Source: an uncultured Bacteroidia bacterium
GTDB taxonomy: Bacteria > Bacteroidota > Bacteroidia > NS11-12g > UBA955
DNA: 64,000 nt
Reading direction: 5' to 3'
Assembly (NCBI GenBank): GCA_943788195.1
Contig: CALSPH010000002.1
Coordinates: 294,294-358,293, forward strand
The notes under the pieces are model-generated. The model saw only the letters and a program-made list of their open reading frames with translations. It was not told the origin of the DNA and searched no databases. Shown here in pieces: positions 13,443 through 25,542 of the stretch. Both the position numbers and the translations under genes were made by a program. How positions within the stretch are numbered: position 1 is the first letter of the stretch; each line of letters starts with the position of its first letter.

Positions 13443-15371
13443 ATGAAAAAACATTACTTAACTATTTTAGGATTAGCATGCACTACTTTATTGTTTGGGC
13501 AAACAAATGCTGATTTATCTAACGTAGCAGTTGAAGCATCTCCTAAGATGACAACTTCTGTTTACGAACAAACTAGCGCAAGTACATCAACAACGGCAAG
13601 CACCAATTCTAATAATATCAGAAGAAGTAACGCGGCAGTTGTTGTTGGAAACACTAAATACGACCTTCAGACGAATGCTGCCGTTGCAAGACGAGTAATT
13701 TTACATAGCAATGGAACCGTATCCATGGTATGGACACAAGCAGCAGATGATGGTTTTCAAGAAAGAGGTGCTGGATACTATTATGTAAGTCAACCTGGTG
13801 GTTGGTTTAACCCAGGTCCACTTAACAATGTTCGTTTGGAATCTATTCGAACAGGATGGCCTCAAATTGGAGTCATGACGAATGGAAATGAATTCACACT
13901 CGGTCATTTAGCATCTGACGGCGGATGGGCTAGAGCAGAGAACACAGGATTAGGAACTACCTTCGCCCAAACAGACGCTAGTGTGAATGACGATGGTCTT
14001 TGGAAGCCTATTTGGGGGCGAATGTCCAATACTGGTGATACAGTACACTTGGTTTCAAGCTATACCGATTCAAGTGCAGTTGGTGAGTTAAGAGCTAAAA
14101 CAATCAATGGTGTATATGCAGCAATGACTTATTCTAGATCATTAGATGGTGGTAAAACTTGGCCAATCAGCCATATTACCTTACCTGGTTACGATTCGAC
14201 AAGATATAACTCAGGTGGAGGTGACCAATACAGTATTGATGCTAGAGGTAATGTGGTTGCAATTGTAACAACCGATATACTTGAAGATTTAGCATACTGG
14301 AAATCTACAGATTACGGTTTGACTTTTACTAAAGTAATAATTGATTCATTCAAATACGCTCCATACACATCAAAGACATTAATGTTGGACACTCCATTTA
14401 CCCAAGACGGTACGAGCACTGTTGTGGTTGATAAAGGAGGAAATGTGCATGTTGCTTGGGGCATCAGTAGAGCATTTGATGACGATACAACAAACGAAAC
14501 ATATTCTTTCTATCCTGGTACTGCAGGTATTGGCTACTGGAATGAAATTGATCAAAACATTGAAGTAATTGCAGTTGGATCTGACCTAGATTTAAATAAC
14601 GATGGTATATTAACTTTTGCTCAAGGTAATATAGCTAACCTAAGCGGAGGGAATTTGCCTACAGGAGTTAACCACGTGGCGCGAACTGGAAATACAAGTA
14701 TTATGACCATGCCAAGTATGGGTATGGATAAAAACGGAAGAATTTTTGTATCCTTTTCATGTGTCAATGAACAAGCTATTGATCAAATATGGAGTCTTAA
14801 CTTAAGAGATGCCTATATTGTAATGTCTCAAGATACCGGAAAAACTTGGGCTGATCCATTAAACGTAACAAACCTACAAGAGAAAGAAGTAGCTTTCCCT
14901 TCTATTGCAAGAGATGTTGATGATTATATTCATATGCAGTTTCAATCAGATGACATCCCTGGAACCAATTTACAGAACAACGTGGATGCAATAGGAAACC
15001 ACCCTGTTGTGGAAAATGATATTTGTTACATTGCTGTGCCAGTAAGTCAAGTGATTGCCGCATCATTAGATGATGTTGCTTTAAGTGTAGATAAAATCAC
15101 TTCTTCTAAAGTATTTGTTGTTGGTCAGAACCAACCAAATCCTTTTATCGGCTCAACTGATGTTACTATTTACTTGAGTAACCCTTCAAACTTAAACGTT
15201 ACAATTACCAATATTGCTGGTAAAGTTGTTAGTTCATTCAAAACAGACGAATTAGCGACTGGTAACCATATTGTTACCATTGACGGAAGCAAACTTAAGT
15301 CAGGAATATACTTTTATACCATGTCAGCTAGCAATGGCGAGACTGTTACCAAGAAAATGGTTGTAAAGTAA
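13443..15371 (+). CDS. T9SS-secreted BNR/Asp-box beta-propeller protein with type A CTD
   Basis: Signal peptide; Asp-boxes SRSLDGGKTW, STDYGLTF, SQDTGKTW; CTD QNQPNPF..GKVV..LKSGIYFY..TKKMVVK. Confidence 0.85.
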   Translation: MKKHYLTILGLACTTLLFGQTNADLSNVAVEASPKMTTSVYEQTSASTSTTASTNSNNIRRSNAAVVVGNTKYDLQTNAAVARRVILHSNGTVSMVWTQAADDGFQERGAGYYYVSQPGGWFNPGPLNNVRLESIRTGWPQIGVMTNGNEFTLGHLASDGGWARAENTGLGTTFAQTDASVNDDGLWKPIWGRMSNTGDTVHLVSSYTDSSAVGELRAKTINGVYAAMTYSRSLDGGKTWPISHITLPGYDSTRYNSGGGDQYSIDARGNVVAIVTTDILEDLAYWKSTDYGLTFTKVIIDSFKYAPYTSKTLMLDTPFTQDGTSTVVVDKGGNVHVAWGISRAFDDDTTNETYSFYPGTAGIGYWNEIDQNIEVIAVGSDLDLNNDGILTFAQGNIANLSGGNLPTGVNHVARTGNTSIMTMPSMGMDKNGRIFVSFSCVNEQAIDQIWSLNLRDAYIVMSQDTGKTWADPLNVTNLQEKEVAFPSIARDVDDYIHMQFQSDDIPGTNLQNNVDAIGNHPVVENDICYIAVPVSQVIAASLDDVALSVDKITSSKVFVVGQNQPNPFIGSTDVTIYLSNPSNLNVTITNIAGKVVSSFKTDELATGNHIVTIDGSKLKSGIYFYTMSASNGETVTKKMVVK

Positions 15372-15483: not shown

Positions 15484-16842
15484 ATGGCAAAAATTCTTGT
15501 TATTGATGACGAAGAAAGCATAAGAAATACCCTGGCTGAAATCCTTGAGTATGAAAAGTACACTGTTGACAAAGCAGAGAACGGTAAAAAAGGGATCGCT
15601 ACACTTAAAAAATCAGAGTATGATGCAGTGTTATGCGACATAAAAATGCCTATCATGGATGGCATGGAGTTTCTGGATGAATCCACAAAGCTTTATCCAG
15701 ACCTTCCAATTGTTATGATTTCTGGCCATGGCACAATTGATACTGCTGTTGAAGCAACCAAAAAGGGAGCTTATGATTTCATAACTAAGCCACCAGACTT
15801 AAATCGCTTACTTATCACCATTCGGAATGCACTAGATAAAACTAATCTAGTAACGGAAACTAAAATTCTCAAACGTAGAGTTAATAAGACTAAAAGCATT
15901 TTAGGTAAAACGCCTGCCATTGAAAAGATAAAACAAACCATTGAAAAAGTGGCTCCTACAGAAGCAAGAGTATTAATTACTGGAGCCAATGGAACAGGAA
16001 AGGAACTAATTGCAAGATGGATTCATGAGAAAAGTGTACGAGGCTCCCATTCATTGATAGAGGTGAACTGTGCAGCAATTCCCAGTGAACTAATTGAAAG
16101 TGAACTATTTGGTCATGAGAAAGGTAGTTTTACTTCTGCGGTCAAACAACGTATTGGTAAATTTGAATTAGCCGATAATGGAACCTTGTTTCTTGATGAG
16201 GTAGGCGACATGAGCTTAGCTGCTCAGGCCAAAGTTCTTCGAGCTATTCAGGAAGGTACCATCGCACGAGTTGGAGGTGACAAGGAAATAAACGTGAATG
16301 TGAGGGTTATAGCGGCAACGAATAAAAACCTTCTAGAAGAAATTGAAAAGGGGAATTTTAGACTTGATCTATATCATAGACTTGGGGTGATTTTAATACA
16401 CAACCCTACACTGAATGAAAGAGAAGAAGACATCCCTGTTATTGCTGAAAAGTTCATTGCTGAGATTTGTGAAGACAACGGGATACCAAAAAAAGAATTC
16501 ACCAAAGAAGGATTTGATGCATTAAAACAAATCAAGTGGACAGGTAATATCCGTGAACTACGTAATGTGATTGAACGCATGGTAATCCTATGTGGCAGCA
16601 AAATAAGTGCGGATGATGTGTTCAACAACGCAAATCCAGCAGCTCGAATTCATGAGGGCATGAATAGCGTGGATGAATTCGAAAAGTTTCAAGAATTTAA
16701 AGACTTTGCCGAAAAACTCTTCATAAAGAAAAAGCTTGAAGACAACAATTGGAATGTTGCCAAAACTGCTCAGGAAATAGACATTCAGCGCAGTCATCTA
16801 TATAATAAAATTGAGAAGTTTGGTTTAAAGCGAACCAGCTGA
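15484..16842 (+). CDS. NtrX/NtrC-family response regulator (REC-AAA+-HTH)
   Basis: Receiver DIKMPIMDG, Walker A GANGTGKE, ESELFGHEKGSFTSA, FLDEVGDM, WTGNIRELRN, C-terminal Fis-type HTH. Confidence 0.93.
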   Translation: MAKILVIDDEESIRNTLAEILEYEKYTVDKAENGKKGIATLKKSEYDAVLCDIKMPIMDGMEFLDESTKLYPDLPIVMISGHGTIDTAVEATKKGAYDFITKPPDLNRLLITIRNALDKTNLVTETKILKRRVNKTKSILGKTPAIEKIKQTIEKVAPTEARVLITGANGTGKELIARWIHEKSVRGSHSLIEVNCAAIPSELIESELFGHEKGSFTSAVKQRIGKFELADNGTLFLDEVGDMSLAAQAKVLRAIQEGTIARVGGDKEINVNVRVIAATNKNLLEEIEKGNFRLDLYHRLGVILIHNPTLNEREEDIPVIAEKFIAEICEDNGIPKKEFTKEGFDALKQIKWTGNIRELRNVIERMVILCGSKISADDVFNNANPAARIHEGMNSVDEFEKFQEFKDFAEKLFIKKKLEDNNWNVAKTAQEIDIQRSHLYNKIEKFGLKRTS

Positions 16843-19605: not shown

Positions 19606-21231
19606 ATGCGCTACATGCTCTGCCAAACTGACCCCATAGTTGGGGACATTGAGGGCAACAAAACGAAAATTCTCGCCGATATTAACCAAGCTAGAAACGA
19701 AAATTGCGATTTTGTAATATTTCCAGAACTTAGCATTTGCGGTTATCCACCGGATGACCTTTTAGATTATTCCTCCTTTGTAGATCGATGTGAAAATGCT
19801 ATTAATGAAATAGCTCTTCAAAGCAAAGGTATCACTATCATTATAGGCGGCATAGAACGTAATAAAGGCGTGGGTCGCAAACTATTTAACACCGCGTTTA
19901 TCCTACAAAATGGATTGATCATTGAGCGTATACATAAAACATTACTACCCACATATGATATTTTTACTGAGCATAGGTATTTTGAAGCCAATGCGGAATT
20001 CAAACTAATTTCAATCAATGGGTTACAAATTGCAGTGAGTATTTGTGAAGATTTATGGGACAGGCATAATTCATTTGAATATATCCAAAGTCCAGTTAAC
20101 CAACTTGCTAAATTAAAACCAGATTTGCATATTAATATTTGCGCATCGCCTTTCCATTTAACAAAATTTAAGAAACGTCAAGAAGTTATTGAAGATTGTG
20201 TTGCAAGACAGGATTGTCCTCTCATCTATTTAAACCAATCCGCAGCACACACTGGCATTTTATTCGACGGTGATAGTGGGGTGTATAATAAACAAGCCCA
20301 GAAAGTGTTGGATTTGCCTCTTTTTCAAGAGGCTACGGCCATATATGACGATGCTGTTCACAATGTACCCATACAAGACCATGACTATGATGATGACATG
20401 GCTATACTTTATCAAGCATTGGTTTTTGGTATTCGATCCTACTTTGAGAAAATGGGTTTTGCTAAAAAGGCACTACTCGGAAGCAGTGGAGGTATTGATT
20501 CAGCGGTCATTCAAGCATTAGGGAGTGCTGCGCTTGGGGCAGAAAATGTACTAGCCGTGCTTATGCCTTCAGAATTTAGCAGTGATGGTAGTATTACAGA
20601 TGCGGAAAAACTTAGTAAAATATTAGGCAACCCCTATGAAATATTGCCAATTAAGAACGCCTACGACAGCATACTGAACATTGTTCAACCCATCTTTAAG
20701 GACACTCCTTTCTCTGTTGCCGAAGAGAATATTCAAGCACGTAGTAGAGGGCTCATACTAATGGCAATAAGTAATAAAACTGGAAGATTCTTGCTAAACA
20801 CTAGTAATAAAAGCGAGATGGCTGTAGGCTATACTACTTTGTATGGCGATATGTGTGGAGGATTATGTGCTATTGGTGATGTATACAAAACGCAATTATA
20901 TGAATTGGCTAAATACATCAATCGAAATGAGGAAATCATTCCATGGAGTATTATCAATAAGGCTCCGTCTGCTGAATTAAGACCTGATCAAAAGGACAGC
21001 GACTCTCTGCCTGAGTATAACCTATTGGATCAAATACTTGAATTGTATATAGAAGACCAGTTAGGGAAAGAGGAAATTATTCAATTAGGTTATGATTCAC
21101 AGATCGTTAACCGAGTTGTTGATTTAGTAAATCGAAATGATTTTAAACGCTGGCAGGCTGCACCCGTGATTAAAGTAAGTACCAAGGATTTCTCTTATGG
21201 CCGAAAAATGCCATTGGTTGCTAAGCACTAA
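19606..21231 (+). CDS. nadE: Glutamine-dependent NAD+ synthetase
   Basis: Nitrilase domain (FPEL..GYPP, ICEDLW) plus SGGIDSA, NIQARSRG, NKSEMAVGYTTLYGD, PSAELRPDQKD. Confidence 0.96.
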   Translation: MRYMLCQTDPIVGDIEGNKTKILADINQARNENCDFVIFPELSICGYPPDDLLDYSSFVDRCENAINEIALQSKGITIIIGGIERNKGVGRKLFNTAFILQNGLIIERIHKTLLPTYDIFTEHRYFEANAEFKLISINGLQIAVSICEDLWDRHNSFEYIQSPVNQLAKLKPDLHINICASPFHLTKFKKRQEVIEDCVARQDCPLIYLNQSAAHTGILFDGDSGVYNKQAQKVLDLPLFQEATAIYDDAVHNVPIQDHDYDDDMAILYQALVFGIRSYFEKMGFAKKALLGSSGGIDSAVIQALGSAALGAENVLAVLMPSEFSSDGSITDAEKLSKILGNPYEILPIKNAYDSILNIVQPIFKDTPFSVAEENIQARSRGLILMAISNKTGRFLLNTSNKSEMAVGYTTLYGDMCGGLCAIGDVYKTQLYELAKYINRNEEIIPWSIINKAPSAELRPDQKDSDSLPEYNLLDQILELYIEDQLGKEEIIQLGYDSQIVNRVVDLVNRNDFKRWQAAPVIKVSTKDFSYGRKMPLVAKH

Positions 21232-21257: not shown

Positions 21258-21443
21258 TTAACTAACAAACAAATGTTGATGTTTTACATTTAGTAAAAGT
21301 TCCTTCGCCAAAACTGAAAGTTTATCCTCAAAATCAGACTCTACCGAAAGTCCTTCACTAGCAATCTTTTTGCGCTGTTTAACGATAGATTCTTTCTCAG
21401 ACTCATCGATTAACAGGTTGATATTGTTCATTTCAATTGACAC
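21258..21443 (-). CDS. Small hypothetical protein (61 aa)
   Basis: Fills the intergenic gap; TAATTTTG -7 box at 21455-21448 ends 5 nt before the GTG. Confidence 0.5.
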   Translation of the reverse strand: MSIEMNNINLLIDESEKESIVKQRKKIASEGLSVESDFEDKLSVLAKELLLNVKHQHLFVS

Positions 21444-21567
21444 ACCTCAAAATTAAACAAAAAATAGCACAATACACCTTAAGTTTTCAACAAATAAGTA
21501 CTTTTTAGTAAAAATGGGCTGTATAAGTGCCCCCAAGCAAGCTGCTTTAATATGCTATATTTACAAA

Positions 21568-24045
21568 GTGAAAACCCCTCTTAAATTACTTATCCTAGCC
21601 TTAATCCTTGTGGTTATTGGGATATTTATTAAGAATAGCTATGCCAAACAAGAGGAAAAGATGAGTGCAGCGCATTCTAAAAAAGTTGAGCACCATACTG
21701 CATCCTTTTTAAAAGCAAGCACAAATAATTGCACGCAATGTCATGAAGGAATAGAAGACATTAGAAACAATGAATCTGGTATGATGCAGGCCATATTGAA
21801 AAAGGCAAAAATATCTGGATTCGAAGGAAATGATTGTATCATCTGCCACGGGGGCAACCCCAATACGAATAATAAAAATCTGGCACATCAAGGTTCTCCT
21901 ATATACTTCAAGGAGAACAAAGGACCAAAAGCATTTTACCCAGACCCGGGTAGTCCTTGGATTAATGAAAACACGTGCGGTATGTGTCACCAAGAACAAG
22001 TTGCGGTTCAATTTAATTCATTGATGGCTACCGAGGCAGGCAAGATTCAAGGTTCACAGTGGGGTTTTGGAGCGCCCAATGGATATAATCATGATTGGGC
22101 CAATTTTGATGTGGAAGAGAAACCCATTCATAAACGATTGGGTACGGAGGTGTACAAAAAATATATGCAACAACTTCAGGAAGCCGAACCACAAGTGTTT
22201 CCAAAAAAAATGCATGAACTGCCAAAAGCACCTACCAAAGACGAGGTAGAGAAAAATCCAAGTTTAGCAATGTTTACCTATATCCGACAGGAATGCCAAC
22301 GTTGTCACACAGCAAGTAAAGGAAGAGAAAAAGTAGGTGAGTTTAGAGGTATAGGTTGCAGTAGTTGCCATATTCCATACTCCAGCAAGGGTTACTACGA
22401 AGGAAAAGATAAGCAAATAGACAAAAGCAAGCCTGGGCACATTCTAGTGCATAATTTACAAGGCACCCGAGAATGCGTGGTGAGTGTAAACAATAAATCA
22501 TATACTGGCATTCCTTCTAAAACCTGTGTTACCTGCCACAACCGCGGAAGGAGAATTGGTCCATCGTTTATGGGTTTAATGGAAACCGCATATAAGTCGC
22601 CATTTATGTCTTATGGAGAAGATCAAGAACAGGTAATGGGCAAGAATTACTTACACCTGCATGCCGATTTACATAAAGACATTGGTATGCTTTGTCAAGA
22701 TTGCCATACCAGCCAAGATGTGCACAGCGATGGGCTTCTTGCAGGCACCACGATGGCCCCTGTTGAAATCGAATGTCAAGATTGCCATGGCACCCCTAAT
22801 AAATACCCTTGGGAACTTCCTATTGGGTATGGAGATGAGGTTACCGGTTCTGTACCAGCAACGGGTAAAGGACGTGGCGTAGCAGACTCCTTTGCAGCTT
22901 ATTTAAGAAAAGGCACCGTATACCCTAAAGAAGATGGTTATTTGCTGTCTGCAAGAGGAAACCCAATCCCCAAAATGGTTAAAAAGGGCAATAAGGTGCT
23001 CTTGCATAGTGCAGGTGGGAAAGATTTTCTATTCTCACCATTAAAAACCCTGCTCAAAGAAGATAAGCTAAGTGAAGATGCAAAAATTGCGATGGTTAGT
23101 ATCGATGGACATATAGACAATTTGGAATGCTATGCTTGCCATGATGATTGGGCTCCACAATGTTATGGATGCCATATAAAAGTAGATTATTCTGGAGATG
23201 ATAAAAAAACAGATTGGGTGGCTACAACAACGGATCCGGATAAAAATGGATTAGCTTCTGACGCCAAACTCAACTTAACTAAATTTCTAATTGAAGGAAC
23301 CGTTACAGAACAAAGGAGTTATTTGAGATTTGAAGACCCGCCTTTAGCCGTGAACGGAGAACATCGCGTTAGCCCTTCAATACCCGGTTGTCAAACAACG
23401 GTAACTGTGATAGGAAAGGACGGGAAACCCCTTATTCTGAACAAGATATTTAGAATTAAGGACATGGAAAATGGTGGCACACATGGACAAAAAGCACTTG
23501 ATATGGCCGTGTTACACCCGCATACCGTTTCTAAGAAAGGGCGCAGTTGTGAAAGTTGCCATGGCAACCCTAAAGCAATGGGATATGGCATTGCTGAAGG
23601 AAAGATATTTTCAGATCCGTCTAAAGGATATGGCATAGATATAACCAATCCTGAAGGTGAATACATGGCGAAAAACTTTACAGAACAGATCAATGCCATA
23701 CCAGATTTAGATCATGATTGGAGTCGCTTTGTTACTGAGGAAGGTGAGCAATTGCAAACTGTAGGACATCACTTAAGTGGTGAAAGACCACTGAACAATG
23801 CAGAACGTGCTAAACTAGATCGCAGAGGCACATGTAAATCTTGTCATAGCCTTGTTCCGGATAAAGATCCAGCAGCAGGACTGCTCTCTCATATAAAGGA
23901 TGTAGGTGGAATAAAAATAGATACTGATTTACACAACAACATTCTGAAAAAGAGTATTCGCTTGACCGCATGGGTGCAAGCAATCCTCATCTTATTAGCC
24001 CTTTTCTTTATAGGCCGATTTATAGTAAAACGAATTAATAAGTAA
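21568..24045 (+). CDS. Dodecaheme c-type cytochrome with N-terminal signal/anchor and C-terminal TM helix
   Basis: 12 CxxCH: CTQCH, CIICH, CGMCH, CQRCH, CSSCH, CVTCH, CQDCH x2, CYACH, CYGCH, CESCH, CKSCH. Start GTG 21568 (MKTPLKLLILALILVVIG) preferred over ATG 21514. Confidence 0.9.
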   Translation: MKTPLKLLILALILVVIGIFIKNSYAKQEEKMSAAHSKKVEHHTASFLKASTNNCTQCHEGIEDIRNNESGMMQAILKKAKISGFEGNDCIICHGGNPNTNNKNLAHQGSPIYFKENKGPKAFYPDPGSPWINENTCGMCHQEQVAVQFNSLMATEAGKIQGSQWGFGAPNGYNHDWANFDVEEKPIHKRLGTEVYKKYMQQLQEAEPQVFPKKMHELPKAPTKDEVEKNPSLAMFTYIRQECQRCHTASKGREKVGEFRGIGCSSCHIPYSSKGYYEGKDKQIDKSKPGHILVHNLQGTRECVVSVNNKSYTGIPSKTCVTCHNRGRRIGPSFMGLMETAYKSPFMSYGEDQEQVMGKNYLHLHADLHKDIGMLCQDCHTSQDVHSDGLLAGTTMAPVEIECQDCHGTPNKYPWELPIGYGDEVTGSVPATGKGRGVADSFAAYLRKGTVYPKEDGYLLSARGNPIPKMVKKGNKVLLHSAGGKDFLFSPLKTLLKEDKLSEDAKIAMVSIDGHIDNLECYACHDDWAPQCYGCHIKVDYSGDDKKTDWVATTTDPDKNGLASDAKLNLTKFLIEGTVTEQRSYLRFEDPPLAVNGEHRVSPSIPGCQTTVTVIGKDGKPLILNKIFRIKDMENGGTHGQKALDMAVLHPHTVSKKGRSCESCHGNPKAMGYGIAEGKIFSDPSKGYGIDITNPEGEYMAKNFTEQINAIPDLDHDWSRFVTEEGEQLQTVGHHLSGERPLNNAERAKLDRRGTCKSCHSLVPDKDPAAGLLSHIKDVGGIKIDTDLHNNILKKSIRLTAWVQAILILLALFFIGRFIVKRINK

Positions 24046-24161: not shown

Positions 24162-25241
24162 TTATATCAACTGATTGATCATAACATCTGAGACTTCGTT
24201 CAAATGAAGTTTTAGTTCCAAATCGCTTTTAATTTTGGCAGTTCGTTGAGGAGTGCAATTGGCCAAAGCTGCAATGATTTGATCCTGCTCCGCTTCACTC
24301 TGAATCAACTCTTCTACTGCTTCACGATTCAATATTAGATTAACTAAACTGATAAATTTAATTTTCACCAATCGCTTCCCTAAAAAATAGGATAGCGCAC
24401 TTGTTTTATAGACTACCACCTGTGGACATCCGATGAGTGCAGCTTCCAAAGTGGCGGTCCCACTGGTCACAATAGCTTTATCCGCAACCTTCAACAAGTC
24501 CCAAGTTTGCCCTTCGATAAGATTCGTCTCATTTATACTTGGGTCAATATTATAATAAACCTCTTTCTGTATTCCCGGAGCCTTTGCTATAACTGGATGA
24601 CAGGCTCCCAGTTGATGTGCTACTTTCATCATGGTTGGCAACATACGTTCGATCTCCTGCTTTCTACTTCCGGGCAATAGTGCTAAAACGGGTTTATGCG
24701 CATTAATCCCAAATTCAATATTGGAATATTCATATGAGCCAATTTCGGATAAGGTTGGATTGCCTACATAATAGGCTTCCTTAAATCCTTTGCCTCGAAA
24801 ATAATCTTCTTCAAAGGGCAGAATACAATATAGATAATCCACCCGTTCTTTAATCTTTTTGATACGCCATTCTGCCCAAGCCCATATTTTAGGCGCAATG
24901 TAATAATGAATTTCAATTTTACTCTGTTCCCGAATTCTTTTGGCCACGCGTAGATTAAAGCCCGATGAATCCACTAACAATAGTTTATCTGGATTGGACG
25001 CAATAATATCATCAACCACCTGATCCATGATCCACTTGAGCTTCTTTCGCTTTTTGAACACTTCCCAAAATCCCATTATGGCAATTTCCTTAAATGAAAA
25101 TTGTATATCAGCTCCTTGAGCCCGCATTTTCTCCCCTCCCATGCCTCTAAAAGAAATTGTCTCATTCACCTTTCTTAATTCAGAAATAAGATTTGCAGCG
25201 TGTAAATCTCCAGATGCCTCTCCTGCGATTACATAAATCAT
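24162..25241 (-). CDS. lpxB: Lipid-A-disaccharide synthase
   Basis: [46 protein letters not shown]. Confidence 0.95.
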
Positions 25242-25242
25242 A

Positions 25243-25542
25243 TTAAGCAAAATATTTAATGTAGACGATTAAGATGCCGGTAAGTATCGTTGCTATAAAA
25301 ACACCTCTTGCAATCAGTTCTTTTTTCAAAGCAATAAAGAGCATGAAAACAGCTAAGTTCAAAATTGCCCCTAAAGATAGTTTCTTACTCAACAAACCGG
25401 TGCTATATGACGTTTCAATATATTCAAGAACTTCATAATTGGAATAATGCACCAAATAGATTCCCATTACAATAATGCAGGGGCAGATTAAACCTACCAG
25501 CACACCAATTAACATTTTTGGAATCATTTCACTTGGCTTCAT
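25243..25542 (-). CDS. Hypothetical membrane protein (3 TM) in surE-lpxB operon
   Basis: Hydrophobic 99-aa ORF packed between surE and lpxB; LNLAVF..ARGV..AT. Confidence 0.7.

Follow-up and report, generated by a model that had tools for sequence, protein, structure and literature searches.

An exported, membrane-tethered dodecaheme cytochrome c of the ExtM superfamily in an uncultured Bacteroidia bacterium

The gene, its protein and the membrane anchor

We describe here a gene for a twelve-heme cytochrome c, which is located at positions 21514..24045 (forward strand, stop codon included) of a 64,000-nucleotide stretch of DNA from an uncultured Bacteroidia bacterium (assembly GCA_943788195.1, contig CALSPH010000002.1, positions 294,294 to 358,293), hereafter called the window. 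Read from its ATG, the open reading frame (ORF) codes for 843 amino acids. Its twelve CxxCH motifs begin at residues 73 (heme 1, 21730..21744), 108 (heme 2, 21835..21849), 155 (heme 3, 21976..21990), 261 (heme 4, 22294..22308), 282 (heme 5, 22357..22371), 338 (heme 6, 22525..22539), 394 (heme 7, 22693..22707), 421 (heme 8, 22774..22788), 539 (heme 9, 23128..23142), 550 (heme 10, 23161..23175), 679 (heme 11, 23548..23562) and 774 (heme 12, 23833..23847), all on the forward strand. The motifs of hemes 1 to 9 and of heme 11 are invariant among 113 sequences; heme 10 is variable and, as its co-variation with other residues suggests, a candidate active site, while heme 12 falls into a membrane-adjacent linker. 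A motif scan of the 843-residue ORF revealed no CxxCK, CxxxCH or CxxxxCH, so that the count of twelve CxxCH without a CxxCK site, which had been proposed in a sequence-only reading of this DNA, is confirmed. A six-frame scan of the 2.53-Mb genome detected more than two CxxCH motifs in just one further ORF, that of ActA of alternative complex III, which has six; the twelve motifs are therefore not a chance occurrence. In the mature part of the protein, two cysteines lie outside these motifs, as had been noted before: C321 in a GTREC sequence (22474..22476) and C626 in a PGCQ motif (23383..23394, with the Cys626 codon at 23389-23391). C3 and C14 of the N-terminal extension are not conserved among homologs.

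The cytochrome gene is found between nadE (NAD synthase; 19606..21231, forward strand), which is unrelated to redox chemistry, and the convergent lpxB (24162..25250, reverse strand). The order of genes is gldB (reverse), a gene for a small outer-membrane beta-barrel, nadE (forward), the cytochrome gene, lpxB (reverse), a 99-residue ORF and surE (reverse). No quinol dehydrogenase, large porin or molybdoenzyme is encoded next to the cytochrome at this locus, and the annotation of the neighbours thus agrees with the earlier placement of the gene between nadE and lpxB without a redox partner. The term orphan, which had been used for it, holds for the gene neighbourhood only, since homologs of the protein number in the thousands and occur in many phyla. 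Contigs from an independent DNA sequencing run span the junction of nadE with the cytochrome gene as well as the stretch from the cytochrome gene over lpxB to surE; because both junctions are bridged, the arrangement is real and not an assembly artefact. Contigs from two metatranscriptome runs cover much of the cytochrome gene at at least 99% identity, with neighbours and spacers covered alike and carry-over of DNA possible, and a scan for sigma-70 promoters and terminators at the cytochrome gene gave nothing above shuffled sequences.

The protein had been described as about 825 residues long, which differs from the 843 residues read from the ATG but is explained by a start at the GTG codon at 21568 (V19). 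P0002, a homolog with 86% identity, has its first residue at the position of V19, and residues 1-18 are not conserved. The probable true start and the Sec signal peptide occupy 21568..21645 (forward strand); read from the GTG, the N-terminus is MKTPLK-LLILALILVVIGIFI-KNSYA followed by KQ, a typical Sec signal peptide with its presumed cleavage site between A and K. Homologs begin with signal peptides of the Sec type or the lipoprotein type. Hydrophobic segments were detected at residues 21-39 and 820-838, the latter followed by the tail GRFIVKRINK, and the predicted C-terminal transmembrane helix (820-838) with its basic cytoplasmic tail is encoded at 23971..24042 (forward strand; based on hydrophobicity and the structural model). 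The C-terminal helix is present in 119 of 121 close homologs, and an N-terminal hydrophobic segment is detectable in 85 of them. An AlphaFold2 model built with 113 sequences (predicted local distance difference test, pLDDT, 90.6; predicted template modelling score, pTM, 0.85) places helices at residues 22-53 and 804-842; its confidence is low at residues 1-19 and 55-60 and in the linker of heme 12 (774-796). Hydrophobicity, homolog N-termini and the model thus all bear out the N-terminal signal and the C-terminal helix with basic tail of the sequence-only reading. We infer that the signal peptide is cleaved off, that the heme domain is periplasmic and that the tail of the C-terminal anchor lies in the cytoplasm, and we are highly confident that the protein is an exported, membrane-tethered dodecaheme cytochrome c.

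The genome also encodes the means to attach the hemes: CcmC, CcmD_alt, CcmE and CcmF are encoded on contig 2 (G000:C2:615.6-619.4 kb), which supplies the cytochrome c maturation system for which a genome search had been suggested. A search of the genome (94.5% complete) for ResB gave nothing. Residues at the membrane end of the protein are conserved in a manner not seen in the helix itself. In 92 core sequences (at least 48% identity), H793, H807, K813, A819, W820 and Q822 (juxtamembrane stretch, 23890..23979, forward strand) are conserved at 0.91-1.00, whereas the core of the transmembrane helix is conserved merely as hydrophobic. Due to this difference, a functional site at the membrane surface is suggested, which, by analogy, might be a quinol site or a docking surface for a membrane complex. 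In NrfH/CymA-type enzymes, the quinol site is located at the membrane end.

Relationship to ExtM and distribution of the family

The NCBIfam model for ExtM (NF040943) matches residues 242-692 with 195.8 bits (E 1e-57), whereas its equivalog cut-off is 800, and the ExtN model and NF040968, labelled ExtO, match residues 522-708 at about E 1e-23. A bona fide ExtM of 619 residues, P0218, reaches 826 bits with NF040943. When the two proteins were compared by BLASTP, residues 71-699 of our cytochrome aligned with residues 29-529 of P0218 at 27% identity (E 1e-60), with hemes 1-11 collinear, VTPGCQTFLTVIGKNGE opposite SIPGCQTTVTVIGKDGK and a PGCQT..TVIGK sequence common to both; in both, a twelfth motif is found near the C-terminus. 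The link to the Geobacter Ext-operon dodecahemes, previously put forward as unverified, is thereby verified at the level of homology. ExtM shares with our protein the twelve CxxCH motifs in the same order, an N-terminal signal peptide, the PGCQT..TVIGK sequence with its extra cysteine and, between heme 10 and heme 11, a beta-rich domain; this collinear architecture with a PGCQ-bearing beta-domain places the protein in the ExtM superfamily as judged by sequence. With a score of 195.8 bits, it is not an ExtM equivalog. It is, through insertions, about 220 residues longer than ExtM, and its C-terminal membrane helix and conserved juxtamembrane residues are both missing from true ExtM.

In the available text of the sources, ExtM is the twelve-heme protein GSU2935 of the extHIJKLMNOPQS cluster (PMC5877670) and part of Cbc6/CbcMNOPQR, a putative quinol:cytochrome c oxidoreductase (bioRxiv 10.1101/2021.04.15.440034, PMC13591261). 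Geobacter ExtM lies beside a Rieske/cytochrome b module, whereas the cytochrome described here stands alone and brings its own anchor, and its locus has no ExtN or ExtKL context. Neither a Rieske protein (PF00355) nor a cytochrome b (PF00033) was found in the 94.5% complete genome, and with nadE and lpxB as neighbours the protein does not appear to belong to a Cbc6/ExtMNOPQS complex, whose genes include those for a Rieske protein, a cytochrome b and the further cytochromes ExtN and ExtS. Models for ExtK and ExtL gave no NCBIfam match at E values up to 1. The sequence-only reading had listed as adverse findings a match to a characterised family, extra cysteines without conservation and the lack of a maturation system. 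Here, the family that was matched is named rather than characterised, the maturation genes are present, and the lack of conservation concerns the GTREC cysteine.

Of 7029 candidates from a word-indexed search, 2609 proteins matched at E <= 0.001. The best 120 homologs are 764-880 residues long, with 53-86% identity, and come from Bacteroidota, Aquificota (Persephonella), Campylobacterota (Hydrogenimonas), Akkermansiaceae and others; leaving aside the 86%-identical P0002, identity across phyla is 53-64% among the homologs listed. Their names are generic, such as 'multiheme c-type cytochrome' or 'cytochrome c554 and c-prime'. An exhaustive search of representatives at 50% identity gave 1273 matches, of which 155 had E <= 1e-30. 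A relative is carried by at least 568 species genomes, counted as 568 of the 600 pattern matches listed with one genome per species, and the best 80 among the matches listed are mostly from Sulfurimonas, Sulfurovum, Nitratiruptor, Hydrogenimonas, Hydrogenothermaceae and diverse Bacteroidota. Among evenly sampled Campylobacterota, a relative is encoded in 29 of 301 genomes, or about one in ten. This is a very large, well-conserved and uncharacterised cytochrome family, a stand-alone relative of ExtM, which is itself among the few cytochromes conserved in all Geobacter. The protein belongs to an unnamed, widespread and strongly conserved sub-family of the ExtM (GSU2935/Cbc6) superfamily, and the earlier description of an uncharacterised exported multiheme cytochrome stands. 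A literature search found no description of the stand-alone anchored sub-family, and in the available text of a survey of Desulfuromonadia cytochromes (PMC11492766) a term search found neither ExtM nor GSU2935.

Within the host's own taxonomic family, two of 120 other genomes carry the gene, both from one other genus. It was not found in a 99% complete genome of the same genus, in which nadE and lpxB lie on separate contigs. In a quick LG+G4 tree of 74 rows, our protein and P0002 fall into a Bacteroidota-dominated clade that includes a metagenome-assembled genome of Myxococcota, the two copies from the same family fall into a different, well-supported subclade, and the phylum label changes four times for Bacteroidota and twice for Campylobacterota. 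Because of this patchy presence and non-monophyly, the distribution points to gene transfer or many losses within the Bacteroidota. Base composition gave no transfer signal: the GC content of the gene is 41.1%, in the top 3.9% of genome windows, with 34% GC at third codon positions.

Neighbourhoods were analysed for 63 of 80 homolog loci; the other 17, which were short or had a cut match, were dropped beforehand. In no phylum is a redox partner gene kept next to the homolog, and in Bacteroidota loci no conserved redox partner was seen and neighbours rarely recur elsewhere. Standing alone is thus a property of the family, and the lack of a partner gene in any phylum together with the lack of Rieske and cytochrome b proteins in our genome fits a self-contained protein. 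In Campylobacterota, the homolog is part of a conserved housekeeping block: upstream, 19-20 loci have EamA, a DAHP-synthase-family gene, lumazine synthase and nusB, and downstream, 19 loci have an MqnC-like radical-SAM gene of the futalosine pathway, separated from the homolog by a DUF302 gene in eight. Loci L025, L035, L041 and L066 are examples of this DUF302/MqnC-like block. The adjacency of the MqnC-like gene is a weak hint at menaquinone and reflects the synteny of a single lineage. At three Aquificota loci (L008, L011, L014), a system II cytochrome c synthase, a ResB-CcsA fusion of about 1056 residues, is encoded directly after the homolog; this synthase could be a dedicated or simply a nearby heme lyase.

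Heme 10, Cys626 and the candidate ligands

The two extra cysteines differ in conservation. At position 321, 7 of 42 sequences have Cys and 22 have Ala, and the GTREC cysteine, once considered alongside the other, is irrelevant because it is not conserved. Cys626 is present in all 92 core sequences and in 15 of 21 distant ones, and it co-varies with heme 10, so that the PGCQ cysteine is indeed associated with one heme. Both are encoded in a beta-rich domain of residues 547-666 (23152..23511, forward strand; DSSP assignment of the model), in which the heme 10 motif lies on a beta strand. Among 193 sequences, 170 have both heme 10 and Cys626, 14 have neither, six have the heme only and three the Cys only. 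In sequences that have lost heme 10, Tyr and other residues stand in place of C550 and C553, and Cys626 has given way to Tyr, Ile or Leu, as if the new residue at 626 filled the heme pocket. In one sub-clade, with P0128, P0131 and a gene at locus L114 (G349:C3:66000-69000), the motif of heme 10 has changed from CYGCH to YYGYD or YYGYK and Cys626 to Ile; part of its members, P0131 and the L114 gene among them, also have no C-terminal membrane helix, and this sub-clade represents a natural 'site-minus' variant. Four ExtM-like proteins, P0185, P0203, P0206 and P0207, keep heme 10 and have PGGQ in place of PGCQ.

We ranked all positions by how far conservation falls from the 152 near-full-length sequences that have heme 10 to the 11 that lack it. 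After the motif itself, the largest drops were found for R344 (0.96 to 0), R601 (0.93 to 0) and C626 and G625 (both 0.97 to 0.09), followed by K377 (0.90 to 0.09) and H752 (0.88 to 0.09), whereas the candidate axial histidines H125, H313, H387, H404, H533 and H670 stay at 0.82-1.0 without heme 10. By analogy, the set of one Cys, one His, two Arg and one Lys resembles the anion-binding pockets of catalytic multiheme enzymes.

In the core sequences, ten histidines outside the motifs are fully conserved (125, 193, 313, 387, 404, 533, 670, 753, 793 and 807), and these together with M171 and C626 make twelve candidate distal ligands for twelve hemes. This count would fit one His/Met heme and one His/Cys heme among the twelve. 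In the His/Cys-ligated cytochromes of the TsdA, SoxAX and DsrJ type, the sixth ligand of a c-type heme is a Cys thiolate. In some distant members H404 is replaced by Met and M171 by His, as would be expected for axial ligands, whose usual signature such swaps are. Considering the conservation and co-variation together, we regard a catalytic site at heme 10 and Cys626 as possible, if not quite probable.

A comparison with MccSep is instructive in this respect. In the available text of its description (PMC13510729), MccSep, or ExtKL (GSU2937-2936), is a pentaheme selenoprotein polysulfide reductase with a His/Cys heme, encoded next to ExtM, with C239, U325, R83 and K372 in its active site, and His/Cys heme chemistry is discussed for TsdA, SoxAX and MccSep. 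The selenocysteine at position 325 (..SIPDGUP..) reaches the His/Cys-ligated heme from an Ig-like beta-sandwich domain, and Cys626 (..SIPGCQ..) lies in a beta-rich domain together with heme 10; this is an analogy only. R83 and K372 matter at the active site of MccSep, and Arg and Lys residues track heme 10 here. MccSep is a soluble tetramer with five hemes that needs two chalcogen residues, a heme-ligating Cys and a catalytic Sec or Cys, whereas our protein has twelve hemes and one conserved cysteine outside the motifs. No similarity to MccSep was seen in the searches of PDB sequences, and the resemblance does not extend beyond the motif, so that we do not assign the protein to the MccSep family.

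Possible functions of the dodecaheme cytochrome

We tentatively propose, giving it a little less than an even chance, that the protein works as a self-contained enzyme of periplasmic electron transfer, tethered to the membrane and with a candidate active heme that bears a Cys; sulfur compounds might be its substrates. Its Sec signal peptide precedes a periplasmic domain of about 750 residues, to which twelve c-type hemes are attached by the Ccm system and which a single C-terminal helix holds at the membrane. According to the proposal, electrons would be exchanged with the menaquinol pool or a membrane complex at heme 12 and residues H793, H807, K813, W820 and Q822 and would pass along the heme chain to heme 10 in the beta-rich domain. 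There, surrounded by Cys626, His752, Arg344, Arg601 and Lys377, heme 10 could act as a catalytic or ligand-switching site, either with His/Cys ligation or with His/His ligation and a nearby thiol, for a small anionic substrate. Quinol oxidation is inferred by analogy with NapC/NirT/NrfH/CymA proteins and Geobacter ImcH, in which a single membrane helix and a membrane-adjacent heme likewise operate with no b-type partner; their NapC/NirT-type anchor is N-terminal, whereas that of our protein is C-terminal and its N-terminus is a signal peptide. The most plausible substrates would be sulfur or selenium species such as polysulfide or thiosulfate. Such a substrate is favoured because of where the family is common, with carriers concentrated in sulfur-oxidising Campylobacterota and Aquificota as a hint for sulfur, and because of the chemistry of His/Cys hemes, and we nevertheless consider a sulfur substrate unlikely on balance. 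Equally doubtful is the full picture of an unrecognised self-sufficient respiratory enzyme, which would be linked to quinol at heme 12, turn over a sulfur (or selenium) species at a Cys/His/Arg/Lys site at heme 10 and be shared by vent sulfur oxidisers (Sulfurimonas, Sulfurovum, Nitratiruptor, Hydrogenothermaceae) and by marine Bacteroidota, the latter having acquired it through gene transfer.

A number of observations weigh against the proposal of a catalytic, sulfur-active enzyme. The six sequences with heme 10 and no Cys626 have PGGQ in four cases and Val at position 626 in two. When independent contrasts were used, eight pairs were available, in which the Cys changed the same way as the heme in 4.8, the opposite way in 0.3 and not at all in 2.9 (median p 0.125), and with full-length rows there were four pairs, in which the test residues changed the same way in 1.7-2.8 and the controls in 0-1.0 (p >= 0.25). 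With so few independent losses, the association between heme 10 and Cys626 falls short of significance. A true ExtM that keeps heme 10 and the Cys has no H752, and the Arg and Lys residues that track heme 10 may simply bind its propionates. No selenocysteine variant was found at the Cys626 site: no database fragment ends or starts there, with P0265 ending at residue 624 in an unrelated tail; the 29 Campylobacterota matches contain no in-gene TGA, one flagged TGA being upstream of the start; and a metagenome scan for NG..R.SP..PG-TGA-Q, which covered core-like motif contexts, gave 60 matches, none of them in a multiheme frame. On the quinol side, the match to PF03264 (NapC/NirT) remains below threshold at 19.2 vs 24.1 bits and aligns residues 45-114 with positions 100-166, the wrong part of the profile, so that membership in the NapC/NirT/NrfH quinol dehydrogenases is not supported. 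With regard to the host, no cytochromes of the Sox, TsdA, Nrf or NirS type were found among the annotated CxxCH ORFs of the genome, and since the host looks like an aerobic heterotroph, in which no other sulfur-respiration genes were noticed, the sulfur reading is weaker for this genome. Finally, ExtM is itself presented with no demonstrated activity in the available text of PMC5877670 and PMC13591261.

The c-type cytochromes of the genome comprise alternative complex III, a cbb3 oxidase (FixP), small cytochromes and five paralogs of the di-haem peroxidase/MauG type. The latter are encoded at C1:984100-985203, C1:956465-957658, C1:49384-50325, C3:27358-28263 and C3:28260-29357 (contigs of G000); five such paralogs are an unusually large periplasmic set for a 2.5-Mb genome, two of them adjoin on contig 3, and they would need an electron donor. 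Alternatively, the dodecaheme cytochrome may be a non-catalytic relay or store, which does no more than carry or buffer electrons between the membrane chain (menaquinol, alternative complex III, cbb3) on one side and periplasmic acceptors, for instance these five paralogs, on the other, with Cys626 in a purely structural or potential-tuning role at heme 10. We regard this as nearly as likely as the enzyme, that is, well within the range of the possible although not probable. It is consistent with the need of several periplasmic di-haem enzymes for a donor, with the lack of any accessory or substrate-handling gene conserved beside homologs, with conserved candidate ligands that suffice for twelve six-coordinate hemes and with the treatment of ExtM, in the available text, as the cytochrome c part of the putative Cbc6 oxidoreductase (bioRxiv 10.1101/2021.04.15.440034, PMC13591261). 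However, the loss of heme 10 along with Arg, Lys, His and Cys is more like that of a pocket than of a relay step, a mere wire would hardly be expected to keep as much as 53-64% identity over some 800 residues between phyla, and the beta-rich domain with heme 10 and its Cys is conserved even in ExtM.

Two further roles are less likely than either the enzyme or the relay. The cytochrome could be an enzyme of the octaheme tetrathionate reductase (OTR), NrfA or HAO kind that reduces or oxidises nitrogen oxides or hydroxylamine at a five-coordinate or unusually ligated catalytic heme. In OTR and the octaheme multiheme cytochrome c enzymes, the catalytic heme is ligated by Lys. A Foldseek search against the PDB returned no match at E <= 0.001, its top row being the Shewanella oneidensis OTR (1sp3) at E about 1, and with VIA-align of the whole model, only 1sp3 rose above the noise caused by the C-terminal helix (Z 6.6, root-mean-square deviation 4.6, 265 aligned residues, 19% identity, model residues 80-774). 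OTR is thus the best structural match, weak as it is, and spans most of the heme domain, but it is a lead only because Z scores under 8 are common for unrelated models. OTR has eight hemes and no membrane anchor, whereas our protein has twelve and is anchored; no domain of OTR was shown to correspond to the beta-rich Cys domain, and no sequence-level match was seen. For residues 470-720 folded separately (pLDDT 73, pTM 0.45), no solved structural relative was found above Z 2.8, and PDB sequence searches with the protein and the family profile returned generic heme-motif matches only. The family profile also weakly matches NrfA chains at residues 360-447 (E 2.5e-7), but this match covers generic heme motifs only, a CxxCK is lacking, none of the Nrf, HAO or OTR families of Pfam and NCBIfam is matched above threshold (E 0.19 for the NrfB-type PRK11659) and no other denitrification cytochromes were seen among the annotated CxxCH ORFs of the genome. 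We therefore consider a nitrogen enzyme very unlikely. Still less probable, to our mind, is extracellular electron transfer in the form of metal or mineral reduction or oxidation, as carried out by large multihemes of Geobacter and Shewanella. Pfam matches to MtrC/MtrF domain II/IV and cytochrome c7 could be taken to speak for such a role, as could the position of ExtM in a Geobacter cluster with an outer-membrane porin in the available text of PMC5877670. However, the C-terminal helix and basic tail indicate tethering to the inner membrane, no porin-cytochrome partner is encoded beside the gene here or at the 63 homolog loci, and the genome codes for only one other multiheme protein.

To return to the enzyme, heme 10 with Cys626, His752, Arg344, Arg601 and Lys377 and the juxtamembrane patch provide a concrete candidate site, and the family has culturable carriers such as Sulfurimonas, Hydrogenimonas thermophila and Persephonella. 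If the site is catalytic, the cycling of sulfur or selenium in the sea and at vents would gain a further enzyme, and if it is not, the protein would represent a new kind of tethered electron hub. Should the reading as a self-sufficient enzyme be true, it would also provide a first functional clue for Geobacter ExtM.

Minor features of the window remain to be described. A 61-residue ORF at 21258-21443 (reverse strand), without a Pfam match, lies within the 282 bp that separate nadE from the cytochrome gene, and the 99-residue ORF between lpxB and surE, at 25243-25542 (reverse strand), belongs to no Pfam family. Further upstream, a 642-residue protein with a C-terminal sorting domain of the type IX secretion system (T9SS) is encoded at 13443-15371 (forward strand) and is followed at 15484-16842 (forward strand) by a sigma-54-dependent response regulator; this pair fits a gliding, T9SS-bearing member of the Bacteroidota.

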